From Candidatus Woesearchaeota archaeon (GTDB taxonomy: Archaea; Nanobdellota; Nanobdellia; Woesearchaeales; WJIZ01), in assembly GCA_018221205.1 (NCBI GenBank), contig JAAOYF010000017.1, forward strand, positions 863 to 64,862: DNA of 64,000 nt. Direction: 5' to 3'. Made by a program: the position numbers and the translations under genes. The notes below the pieces were generated by a model, which did no database searches, was not told the DNA's origin, and was given only the letters and a program-made list of their open reading frames with translations. Shown here one piece after another: positions 43,260 to 64,000 of the stretch. The number at the start of each line of letters is the position of its first letter. The stretch's first letter is position 1.

Positions 43260-44339
43260 ATGATTTCCGTCATAGGAGCAGGACCAGCTGGCTGCTATTA
43301 TGCCTCAAAAGAAAAGGGAGATGTCCACATCTTTGAAGAGCACGCTTCAGTAGGCAACCCTATAGCTTGCACTGGGATTCTGACAGATTCGGTGTTGCAA
43401 TTTACTGATATTCCCAAAGATCTCATCATCAGCAAGATAAATAAGTTCAAGATGGTCGCCCCGAATGGAAAATCCCTCTATGTCGACCTGAATAAGACTA
43501 ATATGGTACTGCATCGTGCCAAATTCGACCAGTTTGTCTTGCAGAAAGCCCTTGATAACGGAGCAAAACTTCATCTGAATGAAAAATTTCTTGGTTACAG
43601 ACAAAATGGCACTGCCTACAAACTGAAAACATCAAAAAAGACGTATGATTCTGAAATGATTATCGGTGCAGACGGCCCTCATAGTGCTGTCGCAAAAGCA
43701 GCAGGCATCTATGGAAAGAGAAAGTTCGTCAAAGGCTACCAGGCAAGGTGTAAGGTCAAAGATTTAGAAGAAGGTGTGACTGAAGTGCATCTCAATCTGG
43801 GAGAATTCTCTTGGGTCGTACCAGAAGACGATAAGATAGCACGAATAGGTGTTATCGGTGTCGATGATGAGAAGCTGAAAGCAGATTATAAGAAGCTCAT
43901 AGGGAATAGTGAAGTGCTTGAGGACCAATCTGGCATAATTCCTCTCTATAACCCGCGCCAGAAGATAAAAAAAGGAAACATATTTCTGCTCGGAGATGCT
44001 GCAACCCATGTAAAAGCCTCGACGTATGGTGGGATAATCTATGGGATGATAGCTGGTGATTACTTGGCCAAGAATAAAGGGACATTCGTAAGCAATATCA
44101 ACAAGAAATTATCAAAAGATTTATGGATAAGCTTGAAGATGAGGAATATGATGAATGCCATGAACGAAAAACAGGCTAATGAATTGATAGATATCTTCGA
44201 AAAAAAGAGGAATAATAAGATTCTTTCAGAGTATGACAGGAATTTCCCGAGCAAATTCATCGTTCAGCTATTGATGAAAGAAGCAAAACTTTGGAAATTA
44301 GGTTTCAAGATATTCGCAAACAGGGCTTTAGGAAAATGA
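43260..44339 (+). CDS. Geranylgeranyl reductase family FAD-dependent oxidoreductase
   Basis: MISVIGAGPAGCYYA (GxGxxG FAD site)...IGADGPHSAVAK...LLGDAA. Confidence 0.7.
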   Translation: MISVIGAGPAGCYYASKEKGDVHIFEEHASVGNPIACTGILTDSVLQFTDIPKDLIISKINKFKMVAPNGKSLYVDLNKTNMVLHRAKFDQFVLQKALDNGAKLHLNEKFLGYRQNGTAYKLKTSKKTYDSEMIIGADGPHSAVAKAAGIYGKRKFVKGYQARCKVKDLEEGVTEVHLNLGEFSWVVPEDDKIARIGVIGVDDEKLKADYKKLIGNSEVLEDQSGIIPLYNPRQKIKKGNIFLLGDAATHVKASTYGGIIYGMIAGDYLAKNKGTFVSNINKKLSKDLWISLKMRNMMNAMNEKQANELIDIFEKKRNNKILSEYDRNFPSKFIVQLLMKEAKLWKLGFKIFANRALGK

Positions 44340-45520
44340 CAGTCGAAGTAAGAGTAGGAAAGATCGGCATTGGTGGAGATAATCCTGTCCGCATTCAATC
44401 TATGACCAATACCCCTACCCAAGACGAGAAAGTGACTGCTAAACAGATAATGGAATTAGCAGATGCTGGCTCAGAATTAGTCCGTTTTACGATAATGGAT
44501 GGTCATGGTGCAGAAAAAGTAGTAAAGATCAAGGAGATTCTTGAGAAAGAGAAATATGACGTGCCTTTGATTGGAGATTTTCATTTCAACGGCCATTTAT
44601 TGTTAGAAAGATTCCCTGATATGGCTCAGATTCTTGATAAATACCGGATCAATCCCGGAAATGTTGGCCATGGTGAGAAACATGATCCGAATTTCCGCAT
44701 CATGATCGAAAAAGCAATCGATAATAAGAAACCTGTCCGAATCGGGGTGAATTTCGGCTCTATCGACAAACAAGTGTATATGAAATTGATGGATGAGAAC
44801 AAAGAAAAAAGCTCTGAAGAACTTGCTATCGATGCGATGGTCGTATCAGCCATGCAATCAATAAAGAAAGCGATTGAATATGGACTAGGAAAAGATAAGA
44901 TAATTGTCTCAACAAAAGCAAGTAGTGTTCCATCGATGATCCGAGCGTATGAAGAACTCGCAAAAAGGACAGACCAGCCCCTGCATTTGGGCGTGACAGA
45001 AGCAGGTATGGGTGATAAAGGTATCATTGCCTCAACAGCTGGTCTATCAACACTCTTGCAGCAAGGGATTGGAGACACTATTAGGGTCTCTTTGACACCT
45101 GAGCCTGGCTCTTCTCGGACAAAGGAGGTTGAAGTGGCTCAACAGATCCTACAGCAGAATGGACTGAGACAGTTTATGCCCATAGTGATCAGCTGCCCGG
45201 GGTGCGGTCGGACAACCTCTATCTTATTCCAAGAAATCGCAAAGGAAATAACTGAATATCTTAAAGAAAATGCTCCAAAATGGAAAAAAGCCGGCTACAA
45301 AGGATTTGAAGATATGAAAGTAGCAGTCATGGGTTGCATTGTCAATGGTCCAGGAGAGAGCAAAGAAGCCAATATTGGTTTAAGTCTCCCCGGCGTAGGA
45401 GAAGACCCTGTCTCGCCGGTCTACATCGACGGCAAACCAGTAGAAAAGCTGAAAGGAGACAAAAGAATCGATGACTTCAAGAAGTTGATTGATGATTATG
45501 TGAAAAGTCATTACGGTTAA
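44336..45520 (+). CDS. ispG: 4-hydroxy-3-methylbut-2-enyl diphosphate synthase (IspG/GcpE)
   Basis: PVRIQSMTNT...INPGNVG...RIGVNFGS...GVTEAGMG...SCPGCGRT...GCIVNGPGE matches all conserved IspG blocks including the 3-Cys Fe-S site. Start at the internal Met (ATGA overlap). Confidence 0.85.
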   Translation: MTVEVRVGKIGIGGDNPVRIQSMTNTPTQDEKVTAKQIMELADAGSELVRFTIMDGHGAEKVVKIKEILEKEKYDVPLIGDFHFNGHLLLERFPDMAQILDKYRINPGNVGHGEKHDPNFRIMIEKAIDNKKPVRIGVNFGSIDKQVYMKLMDENKEKSSEELAIDAMVVSAMQSIKKAIEYGLGKDKIIVSTKASSVPSMIRAYEELAKRTDQPLHLGVTEAGMGDKGIIASTAGLSTLLQQGIGDTIRVSLTPEPGSSRTKEVEVAQQILQQNGLRQFMPIVISCPGCGRTTSILFQEIAKEITEYLKENAPKWKKAGYKGFEDMKVAVMGCIVNGPGESKEANIGLSLPGVGEDPVSPVYIDGKPVEKLKGDKRIDDFKKLIDDYVKSHYG

Positions 45521-45566: not shown

Positions 45567-46544
45567 ATGCAAGCAAGTAAATATATTTGGGAAGTTCTAC
45601 CAGATATTTCAAGAACCTTTGCCTATACTATCCCCAAATTGCCTCCAGGACTTGATTTTGATACTGCACTGACCTACGCGATGTATCGTATTATAGATAC
45701 CATTGAAGATTCTCCGCTAGCACTTGCTAAGAAGACAGAATTAATGGATTTATTTTTCAGTCTTTTTGAGAGTGAGAAAAATTTAACCAGATTTCAAGAA
45801 GAAGTAAAATCAATTCCAAAAAACCAGTATAGTGGTCTGCTTGCAAACGCTTTTAAGATTGTTGAAGCGTTAAAGTCCCGACCGATAGATATCCAAAAAA
45901 CAATTCTCGGGGGTGGGAAAAAGATGGCTGGGGGGTTTCTCAGAGAGGAAGTTCAGCAAATTAACACCTTAGAGGATCAGAACATCTATTGCTATTATGC
46001 AGCAGGTCTGGTGGGAGAAGTTATGAATGAGTTGACCATGCATCACCACCTTATCACAAAGGAGAAAAGTGTAGAACTAAAAGAAAAAGCAAAAGGGATA
46101 GGTCTAGCTTTTCAAAAAGTGAACATCCTTAAAGACATTAAGGTTGATATGGACGAAGACAGGTTCTATTGGCCAAAAGATATCCTAGAAATGAATAATG
46201 TGACTTACTTGACCATCGGAAAAGATGGACATATGGAAGATTCGCTGTCGGTGATTGGTGATTTAACTAAAGATGTAAAACACTATTTTGATCAAGGCTT
46301 AGGATTCATAAACGGGCTCCCGCATAAGCCAGCAGGCCTGCGAATTTTTTGGGCAATCAATCTTATGATGGCAATAGCGACCGTTCGCGTTATTAGGGAT
46401 CCTGCATTATTTGATGATACTATCAAGATTACACGATTAGAAGTAATGGCAATTGATGCAGCAGTGACAAAATGTGTTGAAAATAAAGAAAGTCTAAATC
46501 AGTTAGCACATGCCGTTGCGAAATCAGATATATCCGTATCCTGA
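45567..46544 (+). CDS. Squalene/phytoene synthase family (head-to-head prenyl synthase, SQS/HpnC-HpnD-like)
   Basis: RIIDTIEDS (first Asp-rich motif of SQS), YCYYAAGLVGEVM, GLAFQKVNILKDIKVDMDEDRFYWP (second motif). Confidence 0.7.
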   Translation: MQASKYIWEVLPDISRTFAYTIPKLPPGLDFDTALTYAMYRIIDTIEDSPLALAKKTELMDLFFSLFESEKNLTRFQEEVKSIPKNQYSGLLANAFKIVEALKSRPIDIQKTILGGGKKMAGGFLREEVQQINTLEDQNIYCYYAAGLVGEVMNELTMHHHLITKEKSVELKEKAKGIGLAFQKVNILKDIKVDMDEDRFYWPKDILEMNNVTYLTIGKDGHMEDSLSVIGDLTKDVKHYFDQGLGFINGLPHKPAGLRIFWAINLMMAIATVRVIRDPALFDDTIKITRLEVMAIDAAVTKCVENKESLNQLAHAVAKSDISVS

Positions 46545-46559
46545 ATTGAATCAATATAA

Positions 46560-47480
46560 TCATTCCAAACCGGGGGGCATGATAAAGGTGACTTTCTCAG
46601 TGACGTGATCTAGGGTTTGTATTGTACAAGAAGTGTTTTTCTTTCTGATAGCTGTGATGACTCCTTCAACAAGATAATCAGGAACACTCGCACCAGAAGT
46701 TATCCCCAAGGTTTCGATATTTTCCAGCCATTCTTCTTCAATTCCCTTCTCATCCGGGATAAGATATGATTCCGTGCCAGAATATTTGGCAGTTTCCATT
46801 AATCTGACTGAATTCGAGCTTGTAGGGCTGCCGACAACAAGGATAAGTTCTGCCTGCTGTGCCATTTCCTTGACCGCACCTTGCCTGTTCGTTGTCGCAT
46901 AGCAGATATCCTCTTTCGGCGGTGCCTCGGCTTGGGGATATCTCGCTAAGATCTCCCCCATAATCTCCCTCATATCATCAATTGATAATGTTGTCTGTGT
47001 CAAAATGACGATTTTCTCATTATTCAGAGCAAGCTGCTTGACATCTTCAACATTCTCGACGAGATGCATCGGCGAAATGGCCGTAACACCGACAGCTTCT
47101 TGATGTCCTTTATGGCCGATATAGATGATGTCATACCCGTTTCTATGGAATCTCCGTGCCTCAACATGCACTTTCGTTACTAAAGGACATACTGCATCTA
47201 TTGGGAGGATGCCCATTTCAGCCGCTTTTTCCTTCAAAGCAGGTGGACTGCCATGTGCACTGAAGATGACTTTGCTTCCTTTAGGCACCTCATCCAAAGA
47301 TTCGACAAATATCACTCCTTTCTTCTCCAATTCCTTGACAACATGGGCATTATGAACGATTGCGTGCCTTACATAGATGGGTTTGCCGAATTTCTCTAGG
47401 GCTTTCTCTACAATATCGATTGCTCTGCTCACTCCGGCACAATATCCTCGTGGGCTTGCAAGAATGATTTTCTTGACCAT
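46560..47480 (-). CDS. ispH: 4-hydroxy-3-methylbut-2-enyl diphosphate reductase (IspH/LytB)
   Basis: PRGYCAGVSRAI...VRHAIVHN...SAHG...AVCPLVTKVH...ICYATTNRQ...VVGS.TSSNS shows all three Cys ligands and the conserved blocks. Confidence 0.85.
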   Translation of the reverse strand: MVKKIILASPRGYCAGVSRAIDIVEKALEKFGKPIYVRHAIVHNAHVVKELEKKGVIFVESLDEVPKGSKVIFSAHGSPPALKEKAAEMGILPIDAVCPLVTKVHVEARRFHRNGYDIIYIGHKGHQEAVGVTAISPMHLVENVEDVKQLALNNEKIVILTQTTLSIDDMREIMGEILARYPQAEAPPKEDICYATTNRQGAVKEMAQQAELILVVGSPTSSNSVRLMETAKYSGTESYLIPDEKGIEEEWLENIETLGITSGASVPDYLVEGVITAIRKKNTSCTIQTLDHVTEKVTFIMPPGLE

Positions 47481-54082: not shown

Positions 54083-55576
54083 TTATGGGATAGTTATCGT
54101 AGCTATTGCATAGAGTATGGGGAATTCATTGCGATATTCGGGCCTGACTCGTAAGATCGTTATTCCTTCTTTCTGGTCTTTTTCCACAGGATTCCCGGCT
54201 TTATCTGCCACAAGAACAGCGACACAGTAAGTTTTCCCTGGCATGAACAGCCCAAGAACATCATTCTTCTCTCTTCGTTGCCCGCCTAGGACCCCTTCAC
54301 CATCCATAGTGACAACGTCAGTGCAATCTCCTTCCTTGATATAATAGTAAACATCAAGATTTTCCTCAGCCAGATCCATAGTGATGTCGCTTACAGTTAA
54401 TTGAAGATTTGTTGCTGCCGGAGGAGCGAGCCTATCTTGTGGGGTGAATGTTCTGGTGAGAGGGTCTGCCATATTGCTGTTCTTATCGACTCCGGTGATA
54501 GTGAAGGTATATTCCTTGTCCTCAAGATTAGGGATAAGGTAATGATACAAAGAATCTGAATAAAGGAAAAATGATTTCATCTCTTTTACATAAGGTTGCG
54601 CATCTTTTATTGAAGCAGAAAGCGATGTTGAATCAAATTCGATGTTGAAATGATCAATGTCCTTATCATCGGCCTTCCATGAGAGAATGACTCCTTTGTC
54701 CAGTTTAGAGGCTATCTCTACAACCAATCCACCAAGCTGCGGTGCTGTGTCTCTGAAATAGACCGCAAATTTGACTTTTTGTTGTTTCTCTGAAAGCCCT
54801 TTCCCCTGAGGGATTAGATAATGGTTATTGGTCGAGGCGCAGAACAAGAATGTCCTGTCATCATCATTATCCTTCTTCTCACAATCGATTTCTAATAATA
54901 TGATTTGTCTCTTATTGAAATCATCGACTGCTTTGGTTACGCAGCTGGAAAGCTGCGCACTCCTCTCGCAATCTACAACATCAGAAAAGATCTGAGAGAA
55001 TTCTTGCCATAAAGTATCATAGATGGAAGTATCATAGGCAAGAGTGAGGTCAAAACTAGGTTTCAAAGTAAGATTCCCTATCTTATCGTTCTTGAATTCT
55101 ATAGGCTGCACAAGATTCTGCAATGCAATGCCTATGATCTGCAGTCCTCTATTCTCTCGGCTGTAGAATTCATAGTCGATATCCAAGCCTGCTTTATCCA
55201 GGTTGCTTTTGAGAAGCGGAAGAAGCGCTTGATGGAGGTTCTTGAACAGGATATTCTGTTCTGGAAAGCAGATGCTGTCTTTTGTCTGCCACAAGACATA
55301 TTCTACGCTGCCGCAGGGAAACGTTTGATAATATCCTCCTCTCTCCTCTAAAAGAGAGAGTGCCTGATAGGAAGAGAATTTCGCAGCGTGGTCAATATAG
55401 AACAAGGATTGCTGTTGCTTGCTTGAGATGTCCAAGATCTCAAACTGCAGTTCCCCTATCTTGGCAGAGAAATCCCCTTTCATGTTGTCGAGAGTGATGA
55501 ACAGGCTGGGAAAGATCATGCCGATCATGAAAAGTGACAGCAGCAGTATGAACACCATCCCTTTTTTTGATCTCAT
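54083..55576 (-). CDS. Secreted or cell-surface protein with a class-III (prepilin-like) signal peptide; function unknown
   Basis: N-terminus MRSKKG|MVFILLLSLFMIGMIF, the rest hydrophilic. Last gene of the long minus-strand operon. Confidence 0.5.
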   Translation of the reverse strand: MRSKKGMVFILLLSLFMIGMIFPSLFITLDNMKGDFSAKIGELQFEILDISSKQQQSLFYIDHAAKFSSYQALSLLEERGGYYQTFPCGSVEYVLWQTKDSICFPEQNILFKNLHQALLPLLKSNLDKAGLDIDYEFYSRENRGLQIIGIALQNLVQPIEFKNDKIGNLTLKPSFDLTLAYDTSIYDTLWQEFSQIFSDVVDCERSAQLSSCVTKAVDDFNKRQIILLEIDCEKKDNDDDRTFLFCASTNNHYLIPQGKGLSEKQQKVKFAVYFRDTAPQLGGLVVEIASKLDKGVILSWKADDKDIDHFNIEFDSTSLSASIKDAQPYVKEMKSFFLYSDSLYHYLIPNLEDKEYTFTITGVDKNSNMADPLTRTFTPQDRLAPPAATNLQLTVSDITMDLAEENLDVYYYIKEGDCTDVVTMDGEGVLGGQRREKNDVLGLFMPGKTYCVAVLVADKAGNPVEKDQKEGITILRVRPEYRNEFPILYAIATITIP

Positions 55577-56019
55577 GTATACCCCAGGATTGCTAGTCGT
55601 ATCGGTAATGGTCCTTCAGGACTCGCGATGTCCATCGATTGTTCAAGAAGCACCTGTTTTTTCTCACAATCTACACTGTACAGCGTCTGATCATCCTGCC
55701 ACAATGCCCAGCATATGGGCTGTGCCTGTCCATATACACTGTTCAATGCATGATTGATTACATTCTTTGCCAGATCCCTTGACGGATTTTCAATAGTGAG
55801 CAGGACTTCATCTGCAACAGTGGTTGATTCGGTCACAGGGGTCTGCAGGATGCTGATGAGGATGCCTTTGTCATCAAGATAGCCTTTCTGGATTGAGATT
55901 TCATACGTGATATCTCCGATAAGGAATGAATAAGCGACAAACCATGCTACCATCCCCAAAAAGAAGAAAAACCAACCTAGCATATCTGTAAATATGCCCA
56001 AAAATCCTTTCTTATTCAT
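55573..56019 (-). CDS. Small pilin-like protein (class-III signal peptide)
   Basis: MNKKG|FLGIFTDMLGWFFFFLGMVAWFV. 4-nt overlap with the downstream gene. Confidence 0.5.
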   Translation of the reverse strand: MNKKGFLGIFTDMLGWFFFFLGMVAWFVAYSFLIGDITYEISIQKGYLDDKGILISILQTPVTESTTVADEVLLTIENPSRDLAKNVINHALNSVYGQAQPICWALWQDDQTLYSVDCEKKQVLLEQSMDIASPEGPLPIRLAILGYT

Positions 56020-56473
56020 ATTCCACCGTCTTTATCTGCATCTTTCCCTCGCTTCCGTTGTGGCTGACGAGATATCTCCAGAAAAGATTATCATGAAATT
56101 TGCTGAATTTTGACAAAGGCTCATCTCTCTCAAACCATTTTTGATTGTAGAAGATCTCCTTCTGCTGCCCATCTCTCTCTAAGATGATCCGTGCGCTGAA
56201 CGTGTCCTCTGCATCGTCAGCCCTAATCAATTCCTCTGGTAACTTTTCCTTGATCACACCAGGATATGTCCGCAACGCGAGTGGTGATTCGTGGCTCAAT
56301 TCTCCATAGATCGCGCGATGAGAGAAGATCACAGCCCGAAGATCATAAAGTTCAATCTTGTTGTTGACATGCGTACTCACGAGCAGCCACAACGTGAAGA
56401 AGATGATGACTAGGAAAAGCATTCTCCAGAATCCATAATTCAGTATCTTGAATCCATCTCCTTTTTTGTTCAT
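56012..56473 (-). CDS. Small pilin-like protein (class-III signal peptide)
   Basis: MNKKG|DGFKILNYGFWRMLFLVIIFFTLWLL. Confidence 0.5.
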   Translation of the reverse strand: MNKKGDGFKILNYGFWRMLFLVIIFFTLWLLVSTHVNNKIELYDLRAVIFSHRAIYGELSHESPLALRTYPGVIKEKLPEELIRADDAEDTFSARIILERDGQQKEIFYNQKWFERDEPLSKFSKFHDNLFWRYLVSHNGSEGKMQIKTVEYE

Positions 56474-57477
56474 ATGAACCCCGAATGTAAGGCAATCTTC
56501 AAAGCCTGGAGCTTTTCTGTAGTGAACTCCTCTTTGATACTTATCTCTATGATAAGCTGTGCCGGATTTCCTATCTTTTCTTCAAGGGTGAATGCTGATG
56601 CAGGTATCGATGCAGAGATTTCTGTGCCGAATCCATCATCGACAAGGCCATTGACAAGGCTGCATGAAAGCCCGATCAGATCAGCATTATCAGCAAAGTA
56701 GTAGCTCTTGACTGAATCAGTGCTTTGTTTGTCAGAGAACAGAAGATAGGTGATTGTCCCTGAGGCAGCATCCCTTTTCTTGATCTCTCCTCGCTCTCCC
56801 AGGAAATTCTTGACATCAAGATAGGGATCATTATCCTCTGTGATGAAGACCAGATCAGTGATAGGCCTGGATTTAGGGCAATTAAGAAAGTTTGGCTGCT
56901 TTTCTTCAAGTGTCGAGCTCACGGTGAGTTGATTAGGCGTCTTATAGAAGTAAAGATTCATGCCTTCTTCTCTCTTCACTTTGTTTTTGCGCAGCACCTC
57001 AAGTATAGGCATATACTTTGAGATGAATCCTTTCTTCGGCGGCTGGATATTTGAAGTGAGCAGCGCTGGTTTGATGGTAACAGAAGGGTTCTGGATGAAA
57101 TGCTCTCGTTCTCTCTCTGTGGTTGGTTCATCTCTTTTCTCAAAGACCTCGATCCGGTCTGTCTTGAGTTCCAGTCCGAACCAATAAGTATCTTGAGGAT
57201 AATGCAAAAATGCATTTCCCGGAACCGAAAGTAAAGTATCTGTCAATAGCGCAGTATCTTTTGCCAATAGTCTCTTCTGATAGAATGATTGCTCTCCTAC
57301 TTCTCCGATATAGCGGAAGATAAGAAGGAGTATAACAAGAAGTATGAAAAGATCGATGAACCAAAAGATGGCCTCTCCCTCTACACCCTTTTTTCCCAGT
57401 AGTTTAGCAGTAAACATTGACTCCTTTCTCACTTTTCCGTAATGTGCATGTATAGGTAACAGCATTCTCTTCATCAA
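56470..57477 (-). CDS. Pilin-like or secreted protein (class-III signal peptide); alternative start Met21 at 57417
   Basis: ...MFTAKLLGKKG|VEGEAIFWFIDLFILLVILLLIF followed by a ~280-aa hydrophilic domain. Confidence 0.5.
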   Translation of the reverse strand: MMKRMLLPIHAHYGKVRKESMFTAKLLGKKGVEGEAIFWFIDLFILLVILLLIFRYIGEVGEQSFYQKRLLAKDTALLTDTLLSVPGNAFLHYPQDTYWFGLELKTDRIEVFEKRDEPTTEREREHFIQNPSVTIKPALLTSNIQPPKKGFISKYMPILEVLRKNKVKREEGMNLYFYKTPNQLTVSSTLEEKQPNFLNCPKSRPITDLVFITEDNDPYLDVKNFLGERGEIKKRDAASGTITYLLFSDKQSTDSVKSYYFADNADLIGLSCSLVNGLVDDGFGTEISASIPASAFTLEEKIGNPAQLIIEISIKEEFTTEKLQALKIALHSGFI

Positions 57478-57868
57478 GCTTCGGCTCTGCCCTGAAATCC
57501 TCGACTAAGGCCTTCTCCAGCTCAATGCATTTCTTCAGTGCCTTGTTCTGGCAGTTTGAATCCTTGATACAGATGCACACGCAGGATTTTGTTGACGTGC
57601 ATCCTAATTGGCTGATCCCTTTGGTGAATCCTTGGATTTCATGGATCTCATCGATGTACATGGGAATTTGCTCCTCGATCTTCACCATGTTATCGATCTC
57701 TATCTGTAATCGTTCAAGGCTGCTCCTCGTTCCAGTCTCAAGATCCTGGACCCAGTAGCCGGTGAGCATGATGAAGATTTTCCATGCGATGAAAGAAAGT
57801 AAGACAAAGAACAATACCTCGATGAACAGCTTGATGCCGAATCCTTTCTTATTGACAGGTCGAAGCAT
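57404..57868 (-). CDS. Pilin-like protein (class-III signal peptide) with a Cys-rich C-terminus
   Basis: MLRPVNKKG|FGIKLFIEVLFFVLLSFIAW. Seven Cys in the C-terminal half. The ORF track's longer start (57907) would overlap the upstream gene by 59 nt. Confidence 0.45.
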   Translation of the reverse strand: MLRPVNKKGFGIKLFIEVLFFVLLSFIAWKIFIMLTGYWVQDLETGTRSSLERLQIEIDNMVKIEEQIPMYIDEIHEIQGFTKGISQLGCTSTKSCVCICIKDSNCQNKALKKCIELEKALVEDFRAEPKLDEENAVTYTCTLRKSEKGVNVYC

Positions 57869-58136
57869 CCTTGGTCCGTAGACTCCATTCCTCTCCTTTG
57901 CATTCATACAAATCTTTCCCTCTGCATTCCGTTTGTCCTGATGTGCATTTTCGTAATCCTAATCCTTCTAAAGCCTCGTTATTGCCGTCTCCTGCCCCCC
58001 GAGTAAGCTCCTTGAACGCATCAGAGATGCCTCCCATCCTTCCGGTGAAGATCGCGATGATGACAAACAATACTACAAGCAGAATAGCCGCGACAATCAC
58101 TGTATTCATCGTTAATTCCATTCCTTTTTTCATCAT
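57849..58136 (-). CDS. Small archaeal type IV pilin-like protein (class-III signal peptide, Cys4 C-terminal domain)
   Basis: MMKKG|MELTMNTVIVAAILLVVLFVIIAIFTGR, then C-x7-C-x7-C-x13-C. Confidence 0.6.
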   Translation of the reverse strand: MMKKGMELTMNTVIVAAILLVVLFVIIAIFTGRMGGISDAFKELTRGAGDGNNEALEGLGLRKCTSGQTECRGKDLYECKGEEWSLRTKDASTCQ

Positions 58137-58870
58137 CTCACCATCATATATGTTATGTCTTGTTCATCTCCCCTCATGAGAGCAACCAAGCTTGATTGTG
58201 ATATCTCCCCAATGACGATGCCTCCTCTCCGTGCGCTCGCCTCATACCATCCTATATTCTCGATCTTATCGATATACACACCATTTTGGCCTGAAGAGAA
58301 ATCAAAAGGCCGTTGACTGATCTTTCCTCTGAAATCATTTGCCCAGAGGATATTCGTGAATTCCAGTTCTCTCTTCCAATCCTCATCGACAAAGATATAG
58401 AACACGAATCTACCTTCCTCTTCTCGTGCAAGAACAAAGCCGTTGATGATGCCGTCATGAGGATCAAATTCATGCCCGATGCTCATCGCAACTAATTCAT
58501 CAGCCAATGCCCTCTTTTCAGACAGGCCCATCCCTCGTGTCTTGTTAAAAAAATCAGCAGGCAGATATTCTGAATCGAATTCCTCTCCTTTGTACATCCC
58601 TTGATAGAAGAATGAAGTCAATCCTTCAGAGGTGAAATAATCCTGCTGTGATTTCAACGTCTTTAAGCTGCCTTCTGTCGCCAGATACGTGTCGACGACA
58701 ACCTCTGCAGGATCTGTCGGGCTTTCATACACCCAATCTGAAGGATTATCAGTGAAGAATACTTTCTCTCGAGTAGGCTTCGGTGTCAATTCAGATATTA
58801 AGAATATCCCGGCAACTACCAAAACCAAAACTAATCCTATAATGATGATTATCTTCTTCATATTAATCAT
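58133..58870 (-). CDS. Secreted or anchored protein (N-terminal hydrophobic anchor), function unknown
   Basis: MINMKKIIIIIGLVLVLVVAGIFLI, then a hydrophilic acidic domain. Confidence 0.45.
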   Translation of the reverse strand: MINMKKIIIIIGLVLVLVVAGIFLISELTPKPTREKVFFTDNPSDWVYESPTDPAEVVVDTYLATEGSLKTLKSQQDYFTSEGLTSFFYQGMYKGEEFDSEYLPADFFNKTRGMGLSEKRALADELVAMSIGHEFDPHDGIINGFVLAREEEGRFVFYIFVDEDWKRELEFTNILWANDFRGKISQRPFDFSSGQNGVYIDKIENIGWYEASARRGGIVIGEISQSSLVALMRGDEQDITYMMVR

Positions 58871-61847
58871 GACTCGGCCACTGGCTAGGTATATCGATAG
58901 CTGCTTCTTTCAATACTTCCCCACTCACTCCTGTCGCCATTCCTACCCCTGCCATACAAACAGGTATGAGGGGGGGTGCAGCAACAAAAACTACGCATGC
59001 AAAAGGTGCAAGAACCTCTGTTATACTTACAACGGCTTTGAAAGTGGTATCAAAATCGCTAATGCCATGATAACAGTAATTATCCTCTCCGAAATTCTCA
59101 ACTTGCGGATTTATTTGGATACAAAGAGGTGTATAGATCGGATTTGCAAAACTTACAGTTTCTACAAAGCTCTTAGGGTGACATTCTTTTATTGCATTAT
59201 GTTCATTGTCAATACTATAGAGCATTGTGCTATCACCATCAAAATGATCATAATCAAGAAATATTCCAGTTGGTTTCCCCTCTCCATCCTTTATCTCGTA
59301 TTTTTTCCCTGTTTTGTATACTCCTGATTCCTCATTTTCATCATAATAACATTCACAGCTACTTACTTCAAGAAGGATATCTGTTTGGCAGGGACTGACA
59401 AGATGGAACCGTTGAGGATCCTGATCAAACCATCCTTTATCTTTGGTTAGAGATAGATAATAGCGATTGGTCTCAGGCAACATGCCTTGTAAACCTGGTT
59501 CACCGTAATCTTCTAGGAATTGTTTTGCAAGTTCTTTATGACTTTCAACTTTTTTTGTCTGATCAGTCGATGCTATCCCATCAGTAAAGTTGTTGATATC
59601 AGAGTAACTCACATCAAGGAAGTTAAATTCGCCGTAGGTAGCAGTATGCAGATAGGGTGTTTTCAGTCCCATCGCATTGGTACCTATTGGATAATATTTT
59701 GCTTCCATACTTTCAAGTCTGGTTGCTATCACACCGACTGCCATAGCCAGAAGGTGTCTCTTCTTCATTAATGGATTTGTCATATCTAACCCCCTTGATG
59801 CAACGCTTAGATACATTCGTTCTGTTCTAGAAACAAGTGCCCGCACGTCAGTAGAGGTGACGAAGTTTTTTAATTCTCTCAACGCTTGCTTTTTTGCCTC
59901 GTCAGTAAATTCTCTCCCGGTTTGGCCAAGAATGAATTCCCCCGTCTCTTGATTTAGGATGAGTTTTTGTGCTTTCCTTTGATTTGCCAAGAATATTCGA
60001 AGTTCGTTAGGGCTCATTTTAGTGAGCATTGTCTCGCTATCTCTCAAAATGCCAATAAGAAACCCCTTTCTTTCTGCCTCACTCATATCTAATGCTGCAT
60101 GCTTGAGCATATTGTTTGCCCTATTAGCTGTCCTTTGGGTGTTTAGCGCAGCTCTTGCTAATAATTTCCAGGTGGCATCATACATCTCTTTGCCCATGGT
60201 GGTTCCTAAATCTCTAATCACACTATCAAAATTTGGGATATCTCGCTTAAGCGCATTCATGATCAGCCGGTCTTCTGCACTATCCTTAAATGTCCCTTGC
60301 ATCACTCGGCTGAATTCCCCACCAAAAGCTTCTCTGCCCTGGGTTGTTATCCTGCCTGCGCTATCAAACGCATCATCTCCTAGACTACCAAATGCCTCAG
60401 CAGCTTTTTTCTTCATAAGTAATATAGAGTCCTCTCCTAGCTCTTCGACTGCTTCCTTACCTAGTCTCTTTCGTAATGTTTCCTTGATGATGATCTCTCC
60501 TGCTTCTTCTATAGTATCGGCAGCTACACCTCTTCGCAGAATAAACCTGGCTGAATTCTTGATGGCTGTTAAGAAAACATCTCCTACAGCCCCCACCGCT
60601 GCACGCATCTGTTGTTTGAACGGTACAATCTTTCCTGCTAGCTTTACTGTTCCTCCGACTAATTTGCCTCCTACTTTTACAACGCCTACTAATGGTCGGA
60701 TAACTGGGGCCGCGATCCTTCCAAGGCCCATAGTGATTACACTTAAGGTGCTGATAGCGATTTCTGTACCGATAATAGCAGCAAAACCAACTTGATAGCT
60801 ATCCATTTCCCAGTAAGTTGCCTCCTCTTGTGGAAATTTCTCATAGAATAAGATATAATTAGGATCTCCATAAGCTGCTAACCATTCTTCAGAAAGATAG
60901 CCGATTGCTCCCCCAACCCCACTTCTCTCAGCAAATTCCTGCGGCAACGCAAAATTATTCACTTTATAGCCGAAAGATAATCTATTAGTATCAGCTTCAC
61001 AGGCATTTCCTAAAGAGTCGGCGTGAAAAAATACTTCATTAAGGCCATCATTATTTGCGCAGATGCTCACTTGCTGGCCTTCTCTGCTTGTAAAATAATC
61101 ATCCGGCAGTTTCTCCCAGTTGAGGTTCTCAGAATTGAAAATACTATACCAGCTTCCGCCTGTGATATCCTCGACTTCATTAGCGCAGGTATCTTTAGGA
61201 ATGTGTTTGAATCGCTCGCTGAGATAATAACAGATATTCCACTTCTCCTTTTCCAGATAGGAAAGAAAGTCCTTTTCAGAGAGTTTATCAATTGCAGGAA
61301 GATGTTTATACCCATCCTCAAAGACAATAGAATAACAATTAGTATTTTCAGTATCTTTATCATGGAAGATAAGCCAGCAGTTGATCGTACCGATAGCCAA
61401 TTCCCGTAATCCTTCATCATACGTAGCAGAAGGAGAGACAAACACCGTCTCCCTATCATAATACGTCGGCTTGATATCGACGCTGCCGAAAGATCTCATA
61501 TAAGGCTCCTGCAGTTTCTTCCGTTCTGCAGGTGTTTTGAACACATTGGGATCGAAAAGGCCAAGGACTTTGTCCTTCTCCTCTTTATAAGTATCAATAT
61601 AAGCCAGGCTATTGACAGCAAATATCAATCCATTGACAGAATTGACAGCATTCTGGTTCATCTGTTGGGTAAGGTTGAATCGTTCCTGCATCTCCTGATC
61701 GAATTGGCTGATATTCGCATTTCCCAGAAGATATTGCACCGGTGTGCTGCTCAGGTCAGCCATGATTCTCCAGCCCGATACGATGACAAAGAATACTATG
61801 ATTCCTTTTATAATCGTGGCCAGTGTGAATGCTTCTCCTTTTTTCAT
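58863..61847 (-). CDS. Giant (994 aa) surface or membrane protein with a class-III-like N-terminus, internal Gly-rich hydrophobic segments and a C-terminal hydrophobic anchor
   Basis: MKKG|EAFTLATIIKGIIVFFVIVSGW; central GFAAIIGTEIAISTLSVITMGLGRIAAPVIRPLVGVVKVGG; C-terminal FACVVFVAAPPLIPVCMAGVGMATGV. No known domains recognised. Confidence 0.5.
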   Translation of the reverse strand: MKKGEAFTLATIIKGIIVFFVIVSGWRIMADLSSTPVQYLLGNANISQFDQEMQERFNLTQQMNQNAVNSVNGLIFAVNSLAYIDTYKEEKDKVLGLFDPNVFKTPAERKKLQEPYMRSFGSVDIKPTYYDRETVFVSPSATYDEGLRELAIGTINCWLIFHDKDTENTNCYSIVFEDGYKHLPAIDKLSEKDFLSYLEKEKWNICYYLSERFKHIPKDTCANEVEDITGGSWYSIFNSENLNWEKLPDDYFTSREGQQVSICANNDGLNEVFFHADSLGNACEADTNRLSFGYKVNNFALPQEFAERSGVGGAIGYLSEEWLAAYGDPNYILFYEKFPQEEATYWEMDSYQVGFAAIIGTEIAISTLSVITMGLGRIAAPVIRPLVGVVKVGGKLVGGTVKLAGKIVPFKQQMRAAVGAVGDVFLTAIKNSARFILRRGVAADTIEEAGEIIIKETLRKRLGKEAVEELGEDSILLMKKKAAEAFGSLGDDAFDSAGRITTQGREAFGGEFSRVMQGTFKDSAEDRLIMNALKRDIPNFDSVIRDLGTTMGKEMYDATWKLLARAALNTQRTANRANNMLKHAALDMSEAERKGFLIGILRDSETMLTKMSPNELRIFLANQRKAQKLILNQETGEFILGQTGREFTDEAKKQALRELKNFVTSTDVRALVSRTERMYLSVASRGLDMTNPLMKKRHLLAMAVGVIATRLESMEAKYYPIGTNAMGLKTPYLHTATYGEFNFLDVSYSDINNFTDGIASTDQTKKVESHKELAKQFLEDYGEPGLQGMLPETNRYYLSLTKDKGWFDQDPQRFHLVSPCQTDILLEVSSCECYYDENEESGVYKTGKKYEIKDGEGKPTGIFLDYDHFDGDSTMLYSIDNEHNAIKECHPKSFVETVSFANPIYTPLCIQINPQVENFGEDNYCYHGISDFDTTFKAVVSITEVLAPFACVVFVAAPPLIPVCMAGVGMATGVSGEVLKEAAIDIPSQWPSHD

Positions 61848-61993
61848 GTTCCGAAAAGATTATCTAAAAGGGCAAACGAGCTCCCCTTGAATTTTCCGAT
61901 GATCAGTAGGATGACGATAAGTACTAAGAGTACAAAGAGGAACCATCCGATAAAGTCCCATGTTATTGCTTTCTTCAGGCGAGTACGTCGCAT
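61844..61993 (-). CDS. Unannotated small ORF (49 aa), single-TM protein, translationally coupled to the 994-aa gene
   Basis: Manual translation gives MRRTRLKKAITWDFIGWFLFVLLVLIVILLIIGKFKGSSFALLDNLFGT. Its TGA overlaps the ATG of the downstream gene (ATGA). Confidence 0.35.
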   Translation of the reverse strand: MRRTRLKKAITWDFIGWFLFVLLVLIVILLIIGKFKGSSFALLDNLFGT

Positions 61994-62820
61994 ATTTGAG
62001 CCACCTCACTGTAAAGTACTACATCCATCACATTGACAAATTCCTTTCCTTCCTCTGTCTCAATGCTTAGCCAATTCTCCTTGATATAATCCCATGCGCT
62101 AGATGAAAGAGCATCTACTTGATGTTGGTTTATTGCCTTGAACACAATAGCGTAGGATTCTTTCAAAGAATAATCATAATAGGGAAACTGAAACGCATCT
62201 ACGGGATCCAGCGTCAGTTCATAATAGCTGATCTCATGATACTTGGGTTTTTTCGACCGCATATAATTATCGAGTGTAAGATCCAGACCAGAGTATTCTA
62301 ATGGACCGAATTTTGAATAGCGGACTTCATTATCTATGATACCCTCGAATTTTTTCTGGACAGAAGTATCAAAGGTGAATTGCGCGCACATCACACATTG
62401 TCTGCTCGTGTCCCATGCATCCAACACTTGCAGCCTGCCTTGAGCAAATTGGTCCCAGCAGTCAAATATCAACCCAGAGATGACTTTATTGGAGGCATTG
62501 AGATAGCATTCCTGACCTTTCTCATTGTCGAGTTTCCCGCATTTGATCTTGTGCTCAGTATCTGTCTTCCTAGATTCAATAGTGTATTTATTCTCAAAGA
62601 GCGTGACATATCTGGTTGGACAATCAAGTTCAAAGCCTTCTGTATTGGCGACCGGCAACCTGCCTTTTGAGTTCCAGATGACTGATTGTACACAGGTCTG
62701 TTTATCATAGAAAGGGGATGTTCCCTGATCTATCTTCTTGATGAGCAGCATCCCTATTCCGCTCACTACCAAAGCGAGGATAAGCATAGCCAAAAACCCA
62801 GCTGCGATTCCTTTTTTCAT
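61975..62820 (-). CDS. Pilin-like or secreted protein (class-III signal peptide) with a Cys-rich domain
   Basis: MKKG|IAAGFLAMLILALVVSGIGMLLI. Eight Cys in the mature part. Confidence 0.5.
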   Translation of the reverse strand: MKKGIAAGFLAMLILALVVSGIGMLLIKKIDQGTSPFYDKQTCVQSVIWNSKGRLPVANTEGFELDCPTRYVTLFENKYTIESRKTDTEHKIKCGKLDNEKGQECYLNASNKVISGLIFDCWDQFAQGRLQVLDAWDTSRQCVMCAQFTFDTSVQKKFEGIIDNEVRYSKFGPLEYSGLDLTLDNYMRSKKPKYHEISYYELTLDPVDAFQFPYYDYSLKESYAIVFKAINQHQVDALSSSAWDYIKENWLSIETEEGKEFVNVMDVVLYSEVAQICDVLA

Positions 62821-62969
62821 GGTAGTCTAAGATAGGTTGAAGCATATCTATAGATGATGATGAGCAGAACAATGACAAAGATCCATATCCAGATCATATT
62901 GGTGCCGCTTTCAATAGGCTGACCCTCTGCCGCTAACTCTGCTCTCTTACCTAAAACTCCATTCTCCAT
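62817..62969 (-). CDS. Unannotated small ORF (50 aa), single-TM protein, translationally coupled to the downstream 281-aa gene
   Basis: Manual translation gives MENGVLGKRAELAAEGQPIESGTNMIWIWIFVIVLLIIIYRYASTYLRLP. ATGA overlap with the next gene. A/T-rich TATA-like sequence lies 15-35 nt upstream (62975-63005). Confidence 0.3.
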   Translation of the reverse strand: MENGVLGKRAELAAEGQPIESGTNMIWIWIFVIVLLIIIYRYASTYLRLP

Positions 62970-63008
62970 CCTAATCAGTATAAAAATTGCTATACTAGTA
63001 TATAAATA

Positions 63009-63263
63009 TTATCCTTCAATCAGGCAACAGACCTTATTTGGAGGCACATCATAGAATTGCCCATTGACAGGGCTTCCTTTCTCTAGACAATCAGACTTAG
63101 AAAGGGTGCTTTTATTCTCTCCGGCGCAAGACACGCTTGCTGTACTTTTTTCCAGATCATCAGTGAAGGAGATGATGCCTGAAAAGAAAAAGAGGACAAT
63201 CACAAGAAAGATAACAGCAGAGATAACAGCAAAGACTTTAGTGGGATTGACGGTTACCATCAA
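63009..63263 (-). CDS. Small pilin-like protein with an N-terminal TM helix and a Cys4 C-terminal domain (paralog of 63270-63572)
   Basis: Hydrophobic VFAVISAVIFLVIVLFFF, then C-x12-C-x20-CC. Confidence 0.5.
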   Translation of the reverse strand: MMVTVNPTKVFAVISAVIFLVIVLFFFSGIISFTDDLEKSTASVSCAGENKSTLSKSDCLEKGSPVNGQFYDVPPNKVCCLIEG

Positions 63264-63269
63264 CCCATG

Positions 63270-63572
63270 CTAACCCACTTTCTTCTTCGAACAGCAGATA
63301 TTATCGCCTTCCACATCAAGATATCTGCCTGGAAGCACCTGATCGCATTCTGATCTCAGTGTGGGTTCTCCACCTAATGAAACGCATTTTTGCGCTTCAT
63401 CTATTCCCAAGCCGAATAAACTGATCCTTCCAGTGAAGACAGCGATAAGAACAACAAGTACAATCAGAGCTATAGCAGCTACAATGATGACATTGATGGA
63501 TATGCCTTGTGCCTTCCTTGAAAATCCTTGATTTTCGAGGCGCTCGAACATCTTTGATGGTTGACGTTTCAT
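63270..63572 (-). CDS. Small archaeal type IV pilin-like protein (class-III signal peptide, Cys4 domain); alternative start Met8 at 63551
   Basis: ...SRKA|QGISINVIIVAAIALIVLVVLIAVFTGR. The pilin N-terminus and the FTGR motif are shared with 57849-58136. C-x10-C-x16-CC. Confidence 0.55.
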   Translation of the reverse strand: MKRQPSKMFERLENQGFSRKAQGISINVIIVAAIALIVLVVLIAVFTGRISLFGLGIDEAQKCVSLGGEPTLRSECDQVLPGRYLDVEGDNICCSKKKVG

Positions 63573-63628
63573 AGTATCCCTCTTTTAGTTTGTTTCCGGA
63601 TTTCTATTATATAAATATATCGATAAGT

Positions 63629-64000
63629 TCAGTCCCCCTCACAGATAAACAAGCTCAAATAAAGGGTATTGGGTGGGTTTAAAGGAAGGGGCTGCTGCTT
63701 CATCCTCCTATTGCCTGTGCAATCGTCGTCATCAAAAGTGAGTATGTCCTTGCTCGTCCCTTCAATATCATTAGGATCAAAGCTGGCATAAAAATTGTAA
63801 TTGATGTTCCATGAGTTGAAGGTGGACCCGAATAGCTCACCGAGCTTGTTGCGGAGATAAAAGCAGGAATACGCATCAGGATTGCTGCATCGTATTCTTC
63901 CATCTGGAGGATTGTTAGCACAATCCTGGAAAAGCGTGCTCATCTTGATATCTGAGCAATCTGGGTTGTTCGTCTCCATCATCGCATTCAGAAAGTTTGC
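63629..64000 (-). CDS. C-terminal fragment of a Cys-rich secreted protein; the ORF continues past the window end
   Basis: The reading frame is open from 64000 down to the stop at 63629. Cys-rich, Asn/Asp-rich, no TM segment. Confidence 0.35.
   Translation of the reverse strand, partial: ANFLNAMMETNNPDCSDIKMSTLFQDCANNPPDGRIRCSNPDAYSCFYLRNKLGELFGSTFNSWNINYNFYASFDPNDIEGTSKDILTFDDDDCTGNRRMKQQPLPLNPPNTLYLSLFICEGD

Follow-up and report, generated by a model that had tools for sequence, protein, structure and literature searches.

Cysteine-headed, class III-signal-type paralogues of a large DPANN family as candidate pilin subunits in Woesearchaeota

Three small ORFs in a 64-kb window (the whole stretch of DNA analysed here, from a Ca. 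Woesearchaeota MAG) are read by us as paralogues in a large family, uncurated and restricted to DPANN, of short type IV pilin-like proteins with a class III signal peptide. We put the probability of this reading at about 0.6. The family members are probably building blocks of a cell-surface filament in DPANN archaea. The three ORFs, of 95, 100 and 84 aa, were all confirmed and all lie on the minus strand, within the following set of features.

63629..64000, minus strand: C-terminal part of a fourth upstream minor-pilin-like gene (~170 aa, KK[AS]/QMEIMG... family), whose N-terminus lies beyond the window end
63578..63615, minus strand: promoter and ribosome-binding region of the primary copy, read from the sequence
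63270..63572, minus strand: primary copy, 100 aa (ORF; independent HMM E 4e-30)
63009..63263, minus strand: leaderless paralogue, 83-84 aa (BLASTP to the 100-aa protein E 4e-7; HMM E 1e-8)
62982..63006, minus strand: signals behind the two-gene pilin unit, read from the sequence, with a putative function
57849..58136, minus strand: distal paralogue, 95 aa (independent HMM E 4e-15)
54083..62969, minus strand: remaining operon, eleven ORFs of 50, 281, 49, 994, 245, [95], 167, 335, 153, 148 and 497 aa

The paralogy of the three ORFs was examined with a family HMM from which all window sequences had been left out. This independent profile recovered the 100-aa, 95-aa and 84-aa proteins (E 4e-30, 4e-15 and 1e-8, respectively), and the alignment of the 84-aa protein covered HMM positions 19-86, including the head with its CC. 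Since a profile that excludes the three ORFs still recovers them, their likeness exceeds generic hydrophobicity, and the paralogy proposed in a preliminary description of this DNA was borne out. Judged by their sequences, the three are true paralogues within one very large family. The 95-aa and 100-aa proteins share the N-terminal core Nx[VI]IVAAIxLxVLxVxIAxFTGR, as had been stated (BLASTP, 45% identity over 49 residues, E 6e-11). The same VIVAAI…FTGR N-terminus had also been ascribed to the 84-aa protein, but this protein lacks the core, and the part it has in common with the 100-aa protein is the C-terminal Cys head (BLASTP, 32% identity over 79 residues, E 4e-7). Counting per ORF gave exactly four Cys in each protein, in agreement with the earlier count. 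The C…C…CC pattern is likewise present in the homologous heads of the 100-aa protein (C-x12-C-x16-CC) and the 84-aa protein (C-x12-C-x19-CC). The x7/x7/x13 spacing given for the 95-aa protein was slightly wrong; its cysteines C64, C71, C79 and C94 form C-x6-C-x7-C-x14-C.

The 100-aa protein matches GOV09_02520, from a Ca. Woesearchaeota MAG, at 100% identity. It has a 21-aa leader ending in RKA, with predicted cleavage before Q22, and its mature part consists of QGISINVIIVAAIALIVLVVLIAVFTGR and the Cys head. The N-terminus, RKA/QGISINVIIVAAIALIVLVVLIAVF, is of class III (prepilin) type, reading KA/QG... followed by about 25 hydrophobic residues. The 95-aa protein is laid out as MMKKG/MELTMNTVIVAAILLVVLFVIIAIFTGR, a linker and the head, and its N-terminus, KKG/MELTMNTVIVAAILLVVLFVIIAIF, is of the same type, with KG/ME... 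before about 25 hydrophobic residues. Both proteins have a short basic leader and a hydrophobic stretch. When the three ORFs were inspected for a class III leader, none was present in the 84-aa ORF. Structure prediction, which had been suggested as a check, gave, for both the 100-aa and the 95-aa protein, a long N-terminal helix that carries a small head. The AF2 model of the 100-aa protein has a helix at 22-59 (pLDDT 78.5), and that of the 95-aa protein a helix at 10-46 and three short strands at 69-88 (pLDDT 72.5). Head confidence is moderate in both models (70-84), and both show the "lollipop" architecture of a long helix with a globular head.

A search for the FTGR-Cys4 family in other genomes found it in about 4,000 clusters. 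At 50% identity clustering, 4,057 clusters were obtained at E<=1e-3 and 1,737 at E<=1e-10; the named matches are Woese-, Pace- and Nanoarchaeota, so that all are DPANN where named. The family signature is a leader ending in [KR][A/G/S], Q at +1, a near-invariant helix QGISINxIIxAAIALIVLVVLIAxFTGR and a hypervariable head. Among 147 canonical members, the -1 residue is A in 69, G in 48 and S in 30, and Gln occupies +1 in 136 (93%). The helix is conserved at 86%, whereas the head is conserved at 34%. The number of Cys in the mature part is even in 142/147 canonical members (six in 107, four in 30), and CC occurs near the C-terminus in 119 of the 147. Four Cys is therefore the minority state and six the norm. 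The even counts support the presence of disulfides, with no particular fold implied.

The 100-aa gene has its own expression signals. A TATA-like TTTATATAA lies upstream at 63615-63607, and a Shine-Dalgarno-like AAAAGAGGG at 63586-63578 leaves 5 nt before the ATG. Across the family, a strict TATA motif was found within 90 nt upstream of 106/155 genes (68%) versus 28/775 random segments (3.6%). The Shine-Dalgarno site is shared by the 100-aa gene and the listed primary copies, and AAAGAGGTG recurs in the listed upstream sequences of family genes. The 100-aa protein is the canonical copy, and because its gene has its own TATA box and a strong Shine-Dalgarno site, as a major subunit would be expected to have, it is probably the major subunit. 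Ahead of the next gene lie another TATA-like box, TTTATATA, at 63006-62999, and a run of five T at 62986-62982.

The 84-aa ORF counts 84 aa from a TTG start, or 83 aa if started at the ATG at 63260. Its N-terminus M(M)VTVNPTK leads directly into the hydrophobic segment, placing a Lys within the would-be helix start. A leaderless orthologue exists in L027 (1336-1593; 38% identity, E 4e-18). The ORF could be a decayed pseudogene, but this was rejected because the leaderless orthologue is conserved. Read-through of the in-frame TAG, which would join the 100-aa and 84-aa ORFs, was also rejected, because the L027 counterparts lie in different frames with a TAATG overlap. By sequence comparison, the 84-aa gene is a conserved leaderless derivative retaining the head of the putative major subunit. 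Its product may serve as a membrane-anchored base or terminator, or as a non-polymerising variant. The start of the 95-aa gene overlaps the stop codon of the preceding gene. Its positional orthologue (L007 15115-15384, MRKAQGISINT...; 33% identity, E 6e-8) aligns through the first three Cys of the 95-aa type with the same x6/x7 spacing. The 95-aa protein would be a second, conserved type of subunit whose head differs and whose gene is coupled in translation within the operon, and probably a minor or alternative subunit.

The surrounding genes carry the same kind of N-terminus. Most ORFs of 54083..62969 start with KKG or KKA and a hydrophobic segment, and [KR][KR][GA] plus a hydrophobic N-terminus was found in 11/13 operon ORFs versus 0/54 ORFs elsewhere in the window (Fisher p 6e-11). 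The last ORF (54083-55576) shares an N-terminal module with murein-hydrolase-bearing proteins from related loci (E 4e-10 to an Amidase_2 protein of L002). At the other end, the product of 63629..64000 matches the C-terminal half of L007 9417-9929, and its KK[AS]/QMEIMG... family stands directly upstream of the pilin gene in 72/83 loci. These genes form part of a DPANN syntenic cluster of ~20 genes, in which a giant adhesin-like protein is followed by four minor-pilin-like genes and then the pilin gene, with murein hydrolases at the downstream part in some genomes. Nearly all products of the cluster have a class III-type N-terminus. The four upstream genes were found in 66-72 of the 83 loci and the giant protein in 60. 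Complete or near-complete genomes with the cluster include CP010425.1 (archaeon GW2011_AR15), JBAYIU010000001.1 and CAYVNN010000002.1. The cluster is bordered by housekeeping genes, with MCM, TBP and RNase P p30 upstream and RPA and RadA downstream; walking upstream via a conserved 400-aa family reaches the MCM, TBP and RNase P genes.

To look for assembly machinery, Walker A and peptidase motifs were sought in the window and, over ±10 kb around the gene, in 87 related loci; neither a T2SSE/FlaI-type ATPase nor a TadC/ArlJ-type platform nor an A24-type peptidase turned up. No T2SSE-type Walker A occurred in the window or the 87 loci, where the P-loop proteins were only RadA, MCM and RFC-like. 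Pfam scans of four of the five multi-TM ORFs of the window likewise gave no prepilin peptidase: three are LPG_synthase_TM, CDP-OH_P_transf and YdjM, and the fourth has no match. With no assembly ATPase, platform or peptidase within ±10 kb, the pilin reading is well motivated and unproven. Pfam and NCBIfam scans of the three ORFs, 34 family members and ten neighbours or relatives hit no pilin family, PDB searches by sequence and profile returned only chance matches and no solved pilin, and searches by fold gave nothing informative. The suggestion that the proteins are major or minor pilins of the operon is partly supported: the class III N-termini, the helix-and-head build, the operon-wide signal and the promoter speak for it, but assembly genes, matches to curated models and a leader on the 84-aa ORF are missing.

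These gaps fit another reading, in which the proteins would be abundant single-pass signal-anchor surface proteins, uncleaved and unpolymerised, for example a small coat protein, or one that anchors the S-layer, with a head that changes under pressure from the host or from viruses. The missing peptidase, ATPase and platform speak for it, as do the 84-aa member and its orthologue, which manage without a leader, and the sole Pfam similarities, all weak and sub-threshold, which are to membrane-anchor families such as DUF948. However, 86% conservation over thousands of otherwise divergent proteins is rare for plain anchors, the -2/-1/+1 pattern [KR][AGS]Q is kept in the family, and about 11 neighbouring genes carry the same N-terminal type. 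The four minor genes and the giant adhesin would also be left without a rationale. We regard plain signal anchors as unlikely.

The enzymes of the cluster suggest a further possibility. An Amidase_2 protein, a VanY/M15 protein and an M15_4+SLT protein bear the class III signal, as do the large proteins, and the three ORFs could be pseudopilins that serve secretion or display, in the manner of a type II secretion system or the Sulfolobus bindosome, instead of building a long pilus. The subunits would then form a short scaffold or piston that exports or presents the giant protein and the hydrolases. In the Sulfolobus bindosome, class III signals are already known from non-pilin PibD substrates (PMC4858521). 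However, the ATPase and the platform are equally missing in cis for such an apparatus, and such archaea lack an outer membrane that would have to be crossed. The dedicated strong promoter and the hypervariable exposed head also fit an abundant exposed filament better than a periplasmic-type stub, and we think pseudopilins rather improbable.

That the ORFs encode precursors of small secreted disulfide-rich peptides (defensin- or protease-inhibitor-like effectors or toxins) with a removable Sec signal is very improbable. In its favour, the heads are hypervariable, murein hydrolases lie in the same cluster and the top Foldseek matches of the heads are beta-defensin, tick carboxypeptidase inhibitor and pacifastin. 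These matches are, however, not significant (E 1.6-7, probability <=0.69), the ~25-residue hydrophobic stretch has no A-x-A type cleavage site, and its conservation greatly exceeds that of the presumed mature peptide, the reverse of Sec signal peptides.

Returning to the pilin-like reading, we compared the family with known filament systems. The EppA-dependent (Epd) pilins of Methanococcus maripaludis (TFF system 1; arCOG06620; PF04021 Class_IIIsignal / DUF361) are likewise very short archaeal pilins, in which a leader ending in [KR]-G/A is followed by Gln+1 and a hydrophobic helix, and there are several minor pilins per operon. Unlike them, the family has no PF04021 match. With respect to the Epd motif QxSxEyxxL, the family has the Gln but not the Glu: Glu at +5 and the QxSxE motif are absent from it, QGISIN having Asn where QxSxE has Glu. 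Moreover, its head is predicted to be disulfide-rich, whereas the main Epd pilin has no globular head, and its cluster lacks EppA, the ATPase and the double platform gene. TFF system 1 is on record in some DPANN (10.64898/2026.04.22.720090).

The gene logic is similar to that of the bacterial type IVa pilus (PilY1, four core minor pilins and a major pilin), with a large adhesin-like protein, four small prepilin-like genes and a putative, highly expressed major subunit. In the bacterial pilin a disulfide stabilises the C-terminal part of the head, as is predicted here, and in both the N-terminal helix is conserved and the head variable. The type IVa pilus belongs, however, to another domain of life; the G/FTLIE motif and Glu5 are absent from the present pilin, the head has ~45 residues versus ~120, and no PilBCMNOPQ genes are nearby. 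As a separate observation, a neighbouring protein in L002 reads KKA/FTMAE. Flp/Tad pilins are similarly tiny (~50-90 residues) and mostly one helix, but the family has neither their G/xxxxEY motif nor a TadV/CpaA-type context. The L007 orthologue of the 95-aa protein matched PF16982 Flp1_like weakly, with an E of 0.043, far below the Pfam cut-off.

Disulfide-capable heads had been called unusual for archaeal pilins, which is only partly so. Cys-rich components have been described in the Thermoproteales T4P subsystem 4E (PMC4858521), and the Pyrobaculum arsenaticum pilin is Cys-bonded (10.64898/2026.04.22.720090). These are also archaeal type IV filament components whose conserved Cys are thought to form stabilising disulfides, but they are much larger proteins of unrelated sequence families, from hyperthermophile systems with an identifiable ATPase and platform. 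A literature search with the motif strings and for Woesearchaeota pilins returned nothing specific. Diverse pilins have been predicted from the dark-matter islands of DPANN (PMC6393860), T4P ATPases of nanoarchaea are on record without identified cognate pilins (PMC4858521), and according to one preprint DPANN genomes lack T4P components (10.1101/2020.05.14.094862).

A filament of these proteins could be made as follows. The precursor would insert into the membrane, its short basic leader staying on the cytoplasmic side, and an archaeal prepilin peptidase encoded elsewhere would cleave after [KR]-[A/G/S] to expose Gln+1. In Methanococcus Epd pilins, Gln+1 cyclises to pyroglutamate, and the same may happen here. 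The almost invariant helix of 25-28 residues would pack in the filament core, and the hypervariable head of 40-60 residues would be locked by two or three disulfides and form the exposed surface; in the 100-aa protein, C1 and C2 would be expected to bond with the two Cys of the CC. Polymerisation is suggested indirectly, by the conservation of helix (86%) versus head (34%) and by the dedicated promoter. The filament would be part of the conserved ~20-gene cluster, together with the upstream giant adhesin-like protein and the four minor-pilin-like proteins. Together with the murein hydrolases that some genomes add, this arrangement suggests that the cells attach to a host or attack it.

On a broader view, which we offer tentatively and hold to be doubtful, the Cys-headed proteins would be major and accessory subunits of an unrecognised filament apparatus universal to the Woese-/Pace-/Nanoarchaeota branch. 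If so, its ~20 genes would be a vertically inherited cluster wedged between replication genes that itself encodes no ATPase, platform or peptidase. Such an apparatus would supply the long-missing "pilus" in lineages described as lacking type IV pili, and would let the cells hold on to the wall of bacterial hosts and break through it; it would be assembled by a motor that is distant or unrecognisable, or by a new mechanism. Few uncultured archaea are as widespread as Woesearchaeota, Pacearchaeota and related Nanoarchaeota, and some surveys deny them type IV pili. The absent motor provides a clear test for the use of the canonical type IV filament machine. The invariant N-terminal helix may be a marker for these DPANN lineages, and host specificity may be determined by the hypervariable head with its predicted disulfide lock. 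An unannotated family of several thousand clusters would offer a concrete molecular handle on host attachment.

The three ORFs lie in a tight operon that runs on the minus strand from 63982 down to 54083 (ORF calling in the window).

Cysteine-headed ORFs of the operon
63270-63572, minus strand: 100-aa ORF (ORF calling), C-x12-C-x16-CC
63009-63263, minus strand: 84-aa ORF from TTG (83 aa if from the ATG one codon on), C-x12-C-x19-CC
57849-58136, minus strand: 95-aa ORF (ORF calling), C-x6-C-x7-C-x14-C

All three ORFs named in the preliminary description were found, and each encodes exactly four cysteines, as it had said, all within the C-terminal 35-40 residues. The x7/x7/x13 spacing it gave for the 95-aa protein was slightly off, and x6/x7/x14 was measured. 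BLASTP showed that the pairwise matches are of two different types. The 95-aa and 100-aa proteins have their N-terminal 49 residues in common (45% identity, E 6e-11), whereas the 84-aa and 100-aa proteins align from end to end, Cys head included (32% identity, E 4e-7). Only the hydrophobic stretch is common to the 84-aa and 95-aa proteins.

The similarity is not limited to generic hydrophobicity, because an independent profile, rebuilt after removal of all window sequences and of the only close relative of the 95-aa protein, still recovered the 100-, 95- and 84-aa ORFs (E 4e-30, 4e-15 and 1e-8), and the 84-aa match extended from midway through the hydrophobic segment to the CC, taking in the complete head. 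A Candidatus Woesearchaeota MAG encodes an identical copy of the 100-aa protein (GOV09_02520). Homologues of this protein run into the hundreds; none carries a Pfam domain, and the named ones are all from Woese-, Pace- or Nanoarchaeota. When a 34-member family profile was searched against 1.84 billion representative proteins, 4,057 clusters were obtained at E<=1e-3 and 1,737 at E<=1e-10. Our literature search for the family or its motif found no mention. Many related contigs carrying homologues (L010 and many of L011-L086) are titled 'uncultured Methanosarcinales archaeon', one is titled 'Dehalococcoidales bacterium' and one protein (P0329) 'Bacteroidota', yet all carry the same DPANN gene cluster; the titles are probably placeholders or the result of mis-binning.

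In the family alignment, a short basic leader is followed by an almost invariant block and then by a variable head of 40-60 residues. The block reads KK[A/G/S]-QG[IL]S[IL]N-x-II-x-AAIALIVLVVLIA-x-FTGR. The pattern [KR]-[G/A/S], then Q, then about 25 hydrophobic residues is that of archaeal class III (prepilin) signal peptides, and Gln at +1 is typical for EppA substrates in Methanococcus (see also PMC4858521). Among 193 non-redundant family ORFs from 90 loci, the 147 with a canonical leader were counted. Position -1 was A in 69, G in 48 and S in 30, and Gln stood at +1 in 136. The number of cysteines past the cleavage point was even in 142/147 (six in 107, four in 30), with a CC near the C-terminus in 119. 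These even counts argue for disulfides in the heads; the four-Cys state of the window is a minority within the family. The majority residue had a frequency of 86% in the helix and 34% in the head. AlphaFold2 predicted one long helix (22-59) followed by a short helix and two strands for the 100-aa protein (pLDDT 78.5). For the 95-aa protein (pLDDT 72.5) it gave a helix at 10-46, joined by a linker of low confidence to a sheet of three strands.

Within the family, the 100-aa gene represents the canonical primary copy. The 56-nt spacer upstream of it holds TTTATATAA at 63615-63607, and AAAAGAGGG stands just before its ATG. In the related loci, a strict TATA motif was found within 90 nt upstream of 106/155 family genes versus 28/775 random segments; it is usually ATATTTAAATATAACTT, about 45-50 nt ahead of the ATG, and the ribosome-binding site is AAAGAGGTG. 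The other cluster genes mostly abut or overlap their neighbours. A strong promoter of its own would suit a subunit that dominates by stoichiometry.

The 84-aa protein has no leader, and its start M(M)VTVNPTK runs into the hydrophobic stretch. Its gene is not a decayed copy, because the related locus L027 carries a conserved orthologue (MASISFTK..., C-x14-C-x21-CC; 38% identity, E 4e-18). The ORF is in frame with the 100-aa ORF, two codons past its TAG (TAG CAT GGG TTG ATG; 63261-63272, minus). Read-through of this TAG is unlikely and not a conserved feature, because the two L027 counterparts are in different frames and overlap at TAATG.

The start of the 95-aa gene overlaps the stop of its upstream gene. 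A word-index search found only one close homologue of its product. The gene is a distal paralogue that is conserved and has a head type of its own, because the counterpart at the same position in L007, the most similar locus (15115-15384, beginning MRKAQGISINT), aligns with 33% identity through its first three Cys (E 6e-8), which have the same x6/x7 spacing, and locus L004 has a version with 12 Cys that begins KRAQGGLTMNT.

Of the operon ORFs, 11/13 start with [KR][KR][G/A] and a strongly hydrophobic stretch, versus 0/54 other window ORFs (Fisher p 6e-11). Gene calls around homologues on long contigs gave the order of a conserved cluster.

Gene order of the conserved DPANN cluster
1: protein of about 400 aa, often present
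2: giant Cys-rich, adhesin-like protein of 1,600-2,200 aa, faint to weak Big_13, Big_3_3 or TSP3-type matches
3: four small minor-pilin-like proteins of about 167, 340, 158 and 170 aa, class III-like N-termini (e.g. KKG/FEIQFNW, KKA/QMEIMGL)
4: pilin, often with a second copy
5: about ten further class III-type proteins, a variable set including the distal pilin copy
6: in some genomes, proteins with Amidase_2, VanY/M15, M15_4+SLT or DUF2272 domains

With phmmer, the four upstream genes were found in 66-72/83 loci and the giant protein in 60/83. The cluster spans about 17-20 kb (L002, L004, L006-L008, L088, L089), and window 54083-64000 (minus) is its downstream half only, with ORF 63629-63982 being the C-terminal part of the fourth upstream gene. 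It is a stable, vertically inherited part of the DPANN carrier genomes, because it is bordered by PolD, eIF2-beta, MCM, TBP and RNase P p30 at one end and by RPA, in some cases Hjc, and RadA at the other. The last operon gene (54083-55576, minus) has an N-terminal module in common with an Amidase_2 protein of L002 (E 4e-10), and no hydrolase domain was found in it. This module, a class III-like signal plus GExQFxIL...FYI..AK.S, stands on peptidoglycan-hydrolase-domain proteins (Amidase_2, M15_4+SLT or VanY/M15) of other genomes, at L002 15286-16455, L004 17391-19130 and L006 15731-16789.

Several other proteins in and beside the cluster were noted. The 994-aa protein at 58863-61847 (minus) has a KKG plus hydrophobic N-terminus. 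By eye, hydrophobic segments also lie inside it and near its C-terminus, its middle is long, charged and helical, and its C-terminal region is rich in Cys. Pfam gave no match for it, and homologues were found in only 12/83 related loci. The archaeal protein at L002 12988-13674 reads KKA/FTMAEALM..., the bacterial type IV prepilin consensus (F+1, E+5), and its window equivalent by position (57404-57907) reads KKG/FGIKLFIE. In some genomes a Hint/PT-HINT protein of about 1,000 aa lies directly upstream of the cluster (L089 7023-10037).

Elsewhere, window 1-37000 is a large glycosylation and surface-polysaccharide island, which may modify the surface proteins encoded downstream. It encodes two DUF6541/PMT_2-like membrane proteins and one further PMT_2/TgpA_N-like one, a heptosyltransferase-family GT9, a Polysacc_synt flippase, asparagine synthase, UDP-glucose dehydrogenase, an LPG_synthase_TM protein and several ORFs whose N-termini resemble, by appearance, NAD-dependent sugar epimerases/dehydratases (GxxGxxG). 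GcpE/IspG (E 1.6e-113) and LytB/IspH (E 2.9e-90), which catalyse the final two steps of the bacterial-type MEP isoprenoid pathway, are encoded next to a squalene/phytoene synthase at 44291-45520 (+), 46560-47480 (-) and 45567-46544 (+). Archaea normally make isoprenoids by the mevalonate route, and MEP enzymes on an archaeal contig are unusual.

No T2SSE/FlaI-type ATPase was found in the window or within ±10 kb of a family gene in 87 loci, where the only P-loop proteins were RadA, MCM and an RFC-like protein. No platform protein or prepilin peptidase was seen in the window or the cluster surroundings examined. The literature on DPANN type IV pili is divided. He et al. stated that DPANN genomes lack type IV pilus components (10.1101/2020.05.14.094862), whereas a 2026 preprint described TFF systems 1 and 4A in some DPANN, and some systems with pilin loci distant from the machinery (10.64898/2026.04.22.720090). 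According to predictions by Makarova et al., DPANN islands encode a diversity of 'dark-matter' pilins adjoining FliI and TadC (PMC6393860); the same authors noted nanoarchaeal ATPases without identifiable cognate pilins (PMC4858521).

The most economical reading is that the three ORFs belong to a new and very large family of type IV pilin-like proteins from archaea. We give it a probability of about 0.6, and no more because the motor was not found. In this reading the major subunit would be the 100-aa protein, with the 95-aa protein as a minor or alternative one and the 84-aa protein as a derivative without leader; we infer cleavage, pyroglutamate formation, polymerisation and a tip complex as steps. 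The helix conservation is far above that of simple membrane anchors, and such extreme conservation would be expected of a segment that packs in a filament core and is recognised by peptidase and platform. The hypervariable, putatively disulfide-locked head would be expected of an exposed surface on a symbiont's adhesive organelle. PilY1 and four core minor pilins prime bacterial type IVa pili, and the giant protein with the four small prepilin-like genes resembles this set by analogy, not homology.

A pseudopilus or display scaffold is a rival explanation, as is an abundant, uncleaved membrane-anchored coat protein. A secreted disulfide-rich peptide was weakly suggested by non-significant defensin-like and pacifastin-like fold matches and is contradicted by the conservation pattern.

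An archaeal type IV pilin-like protein is a known kind, and the novelty of the pilin-like reading is the family itself, which comprises thousands of clusters and for which neither a curated model nor a paper was found. The preliminary description had called disulfide heads unusual for archaeal pilins; the tiny disulfide-rich head is indeed new, but Cys-stabilised archaeal pilus components have already been described (PMC4858521). Also new are its strict position within a class III-signal cluster found across DPANN and the lack of assembly genes in cis. Woesearchaeota have been suggested to prey on bacteria (PMC9723730), and the class III signals on the cluster's peptidoglycan hydrolases in some genomes fit this suggestion. 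More tentatively, and in our view rather doubtfully, the family would form a host-attachment filament specific to DPANN and assembled by an unrecognised route.
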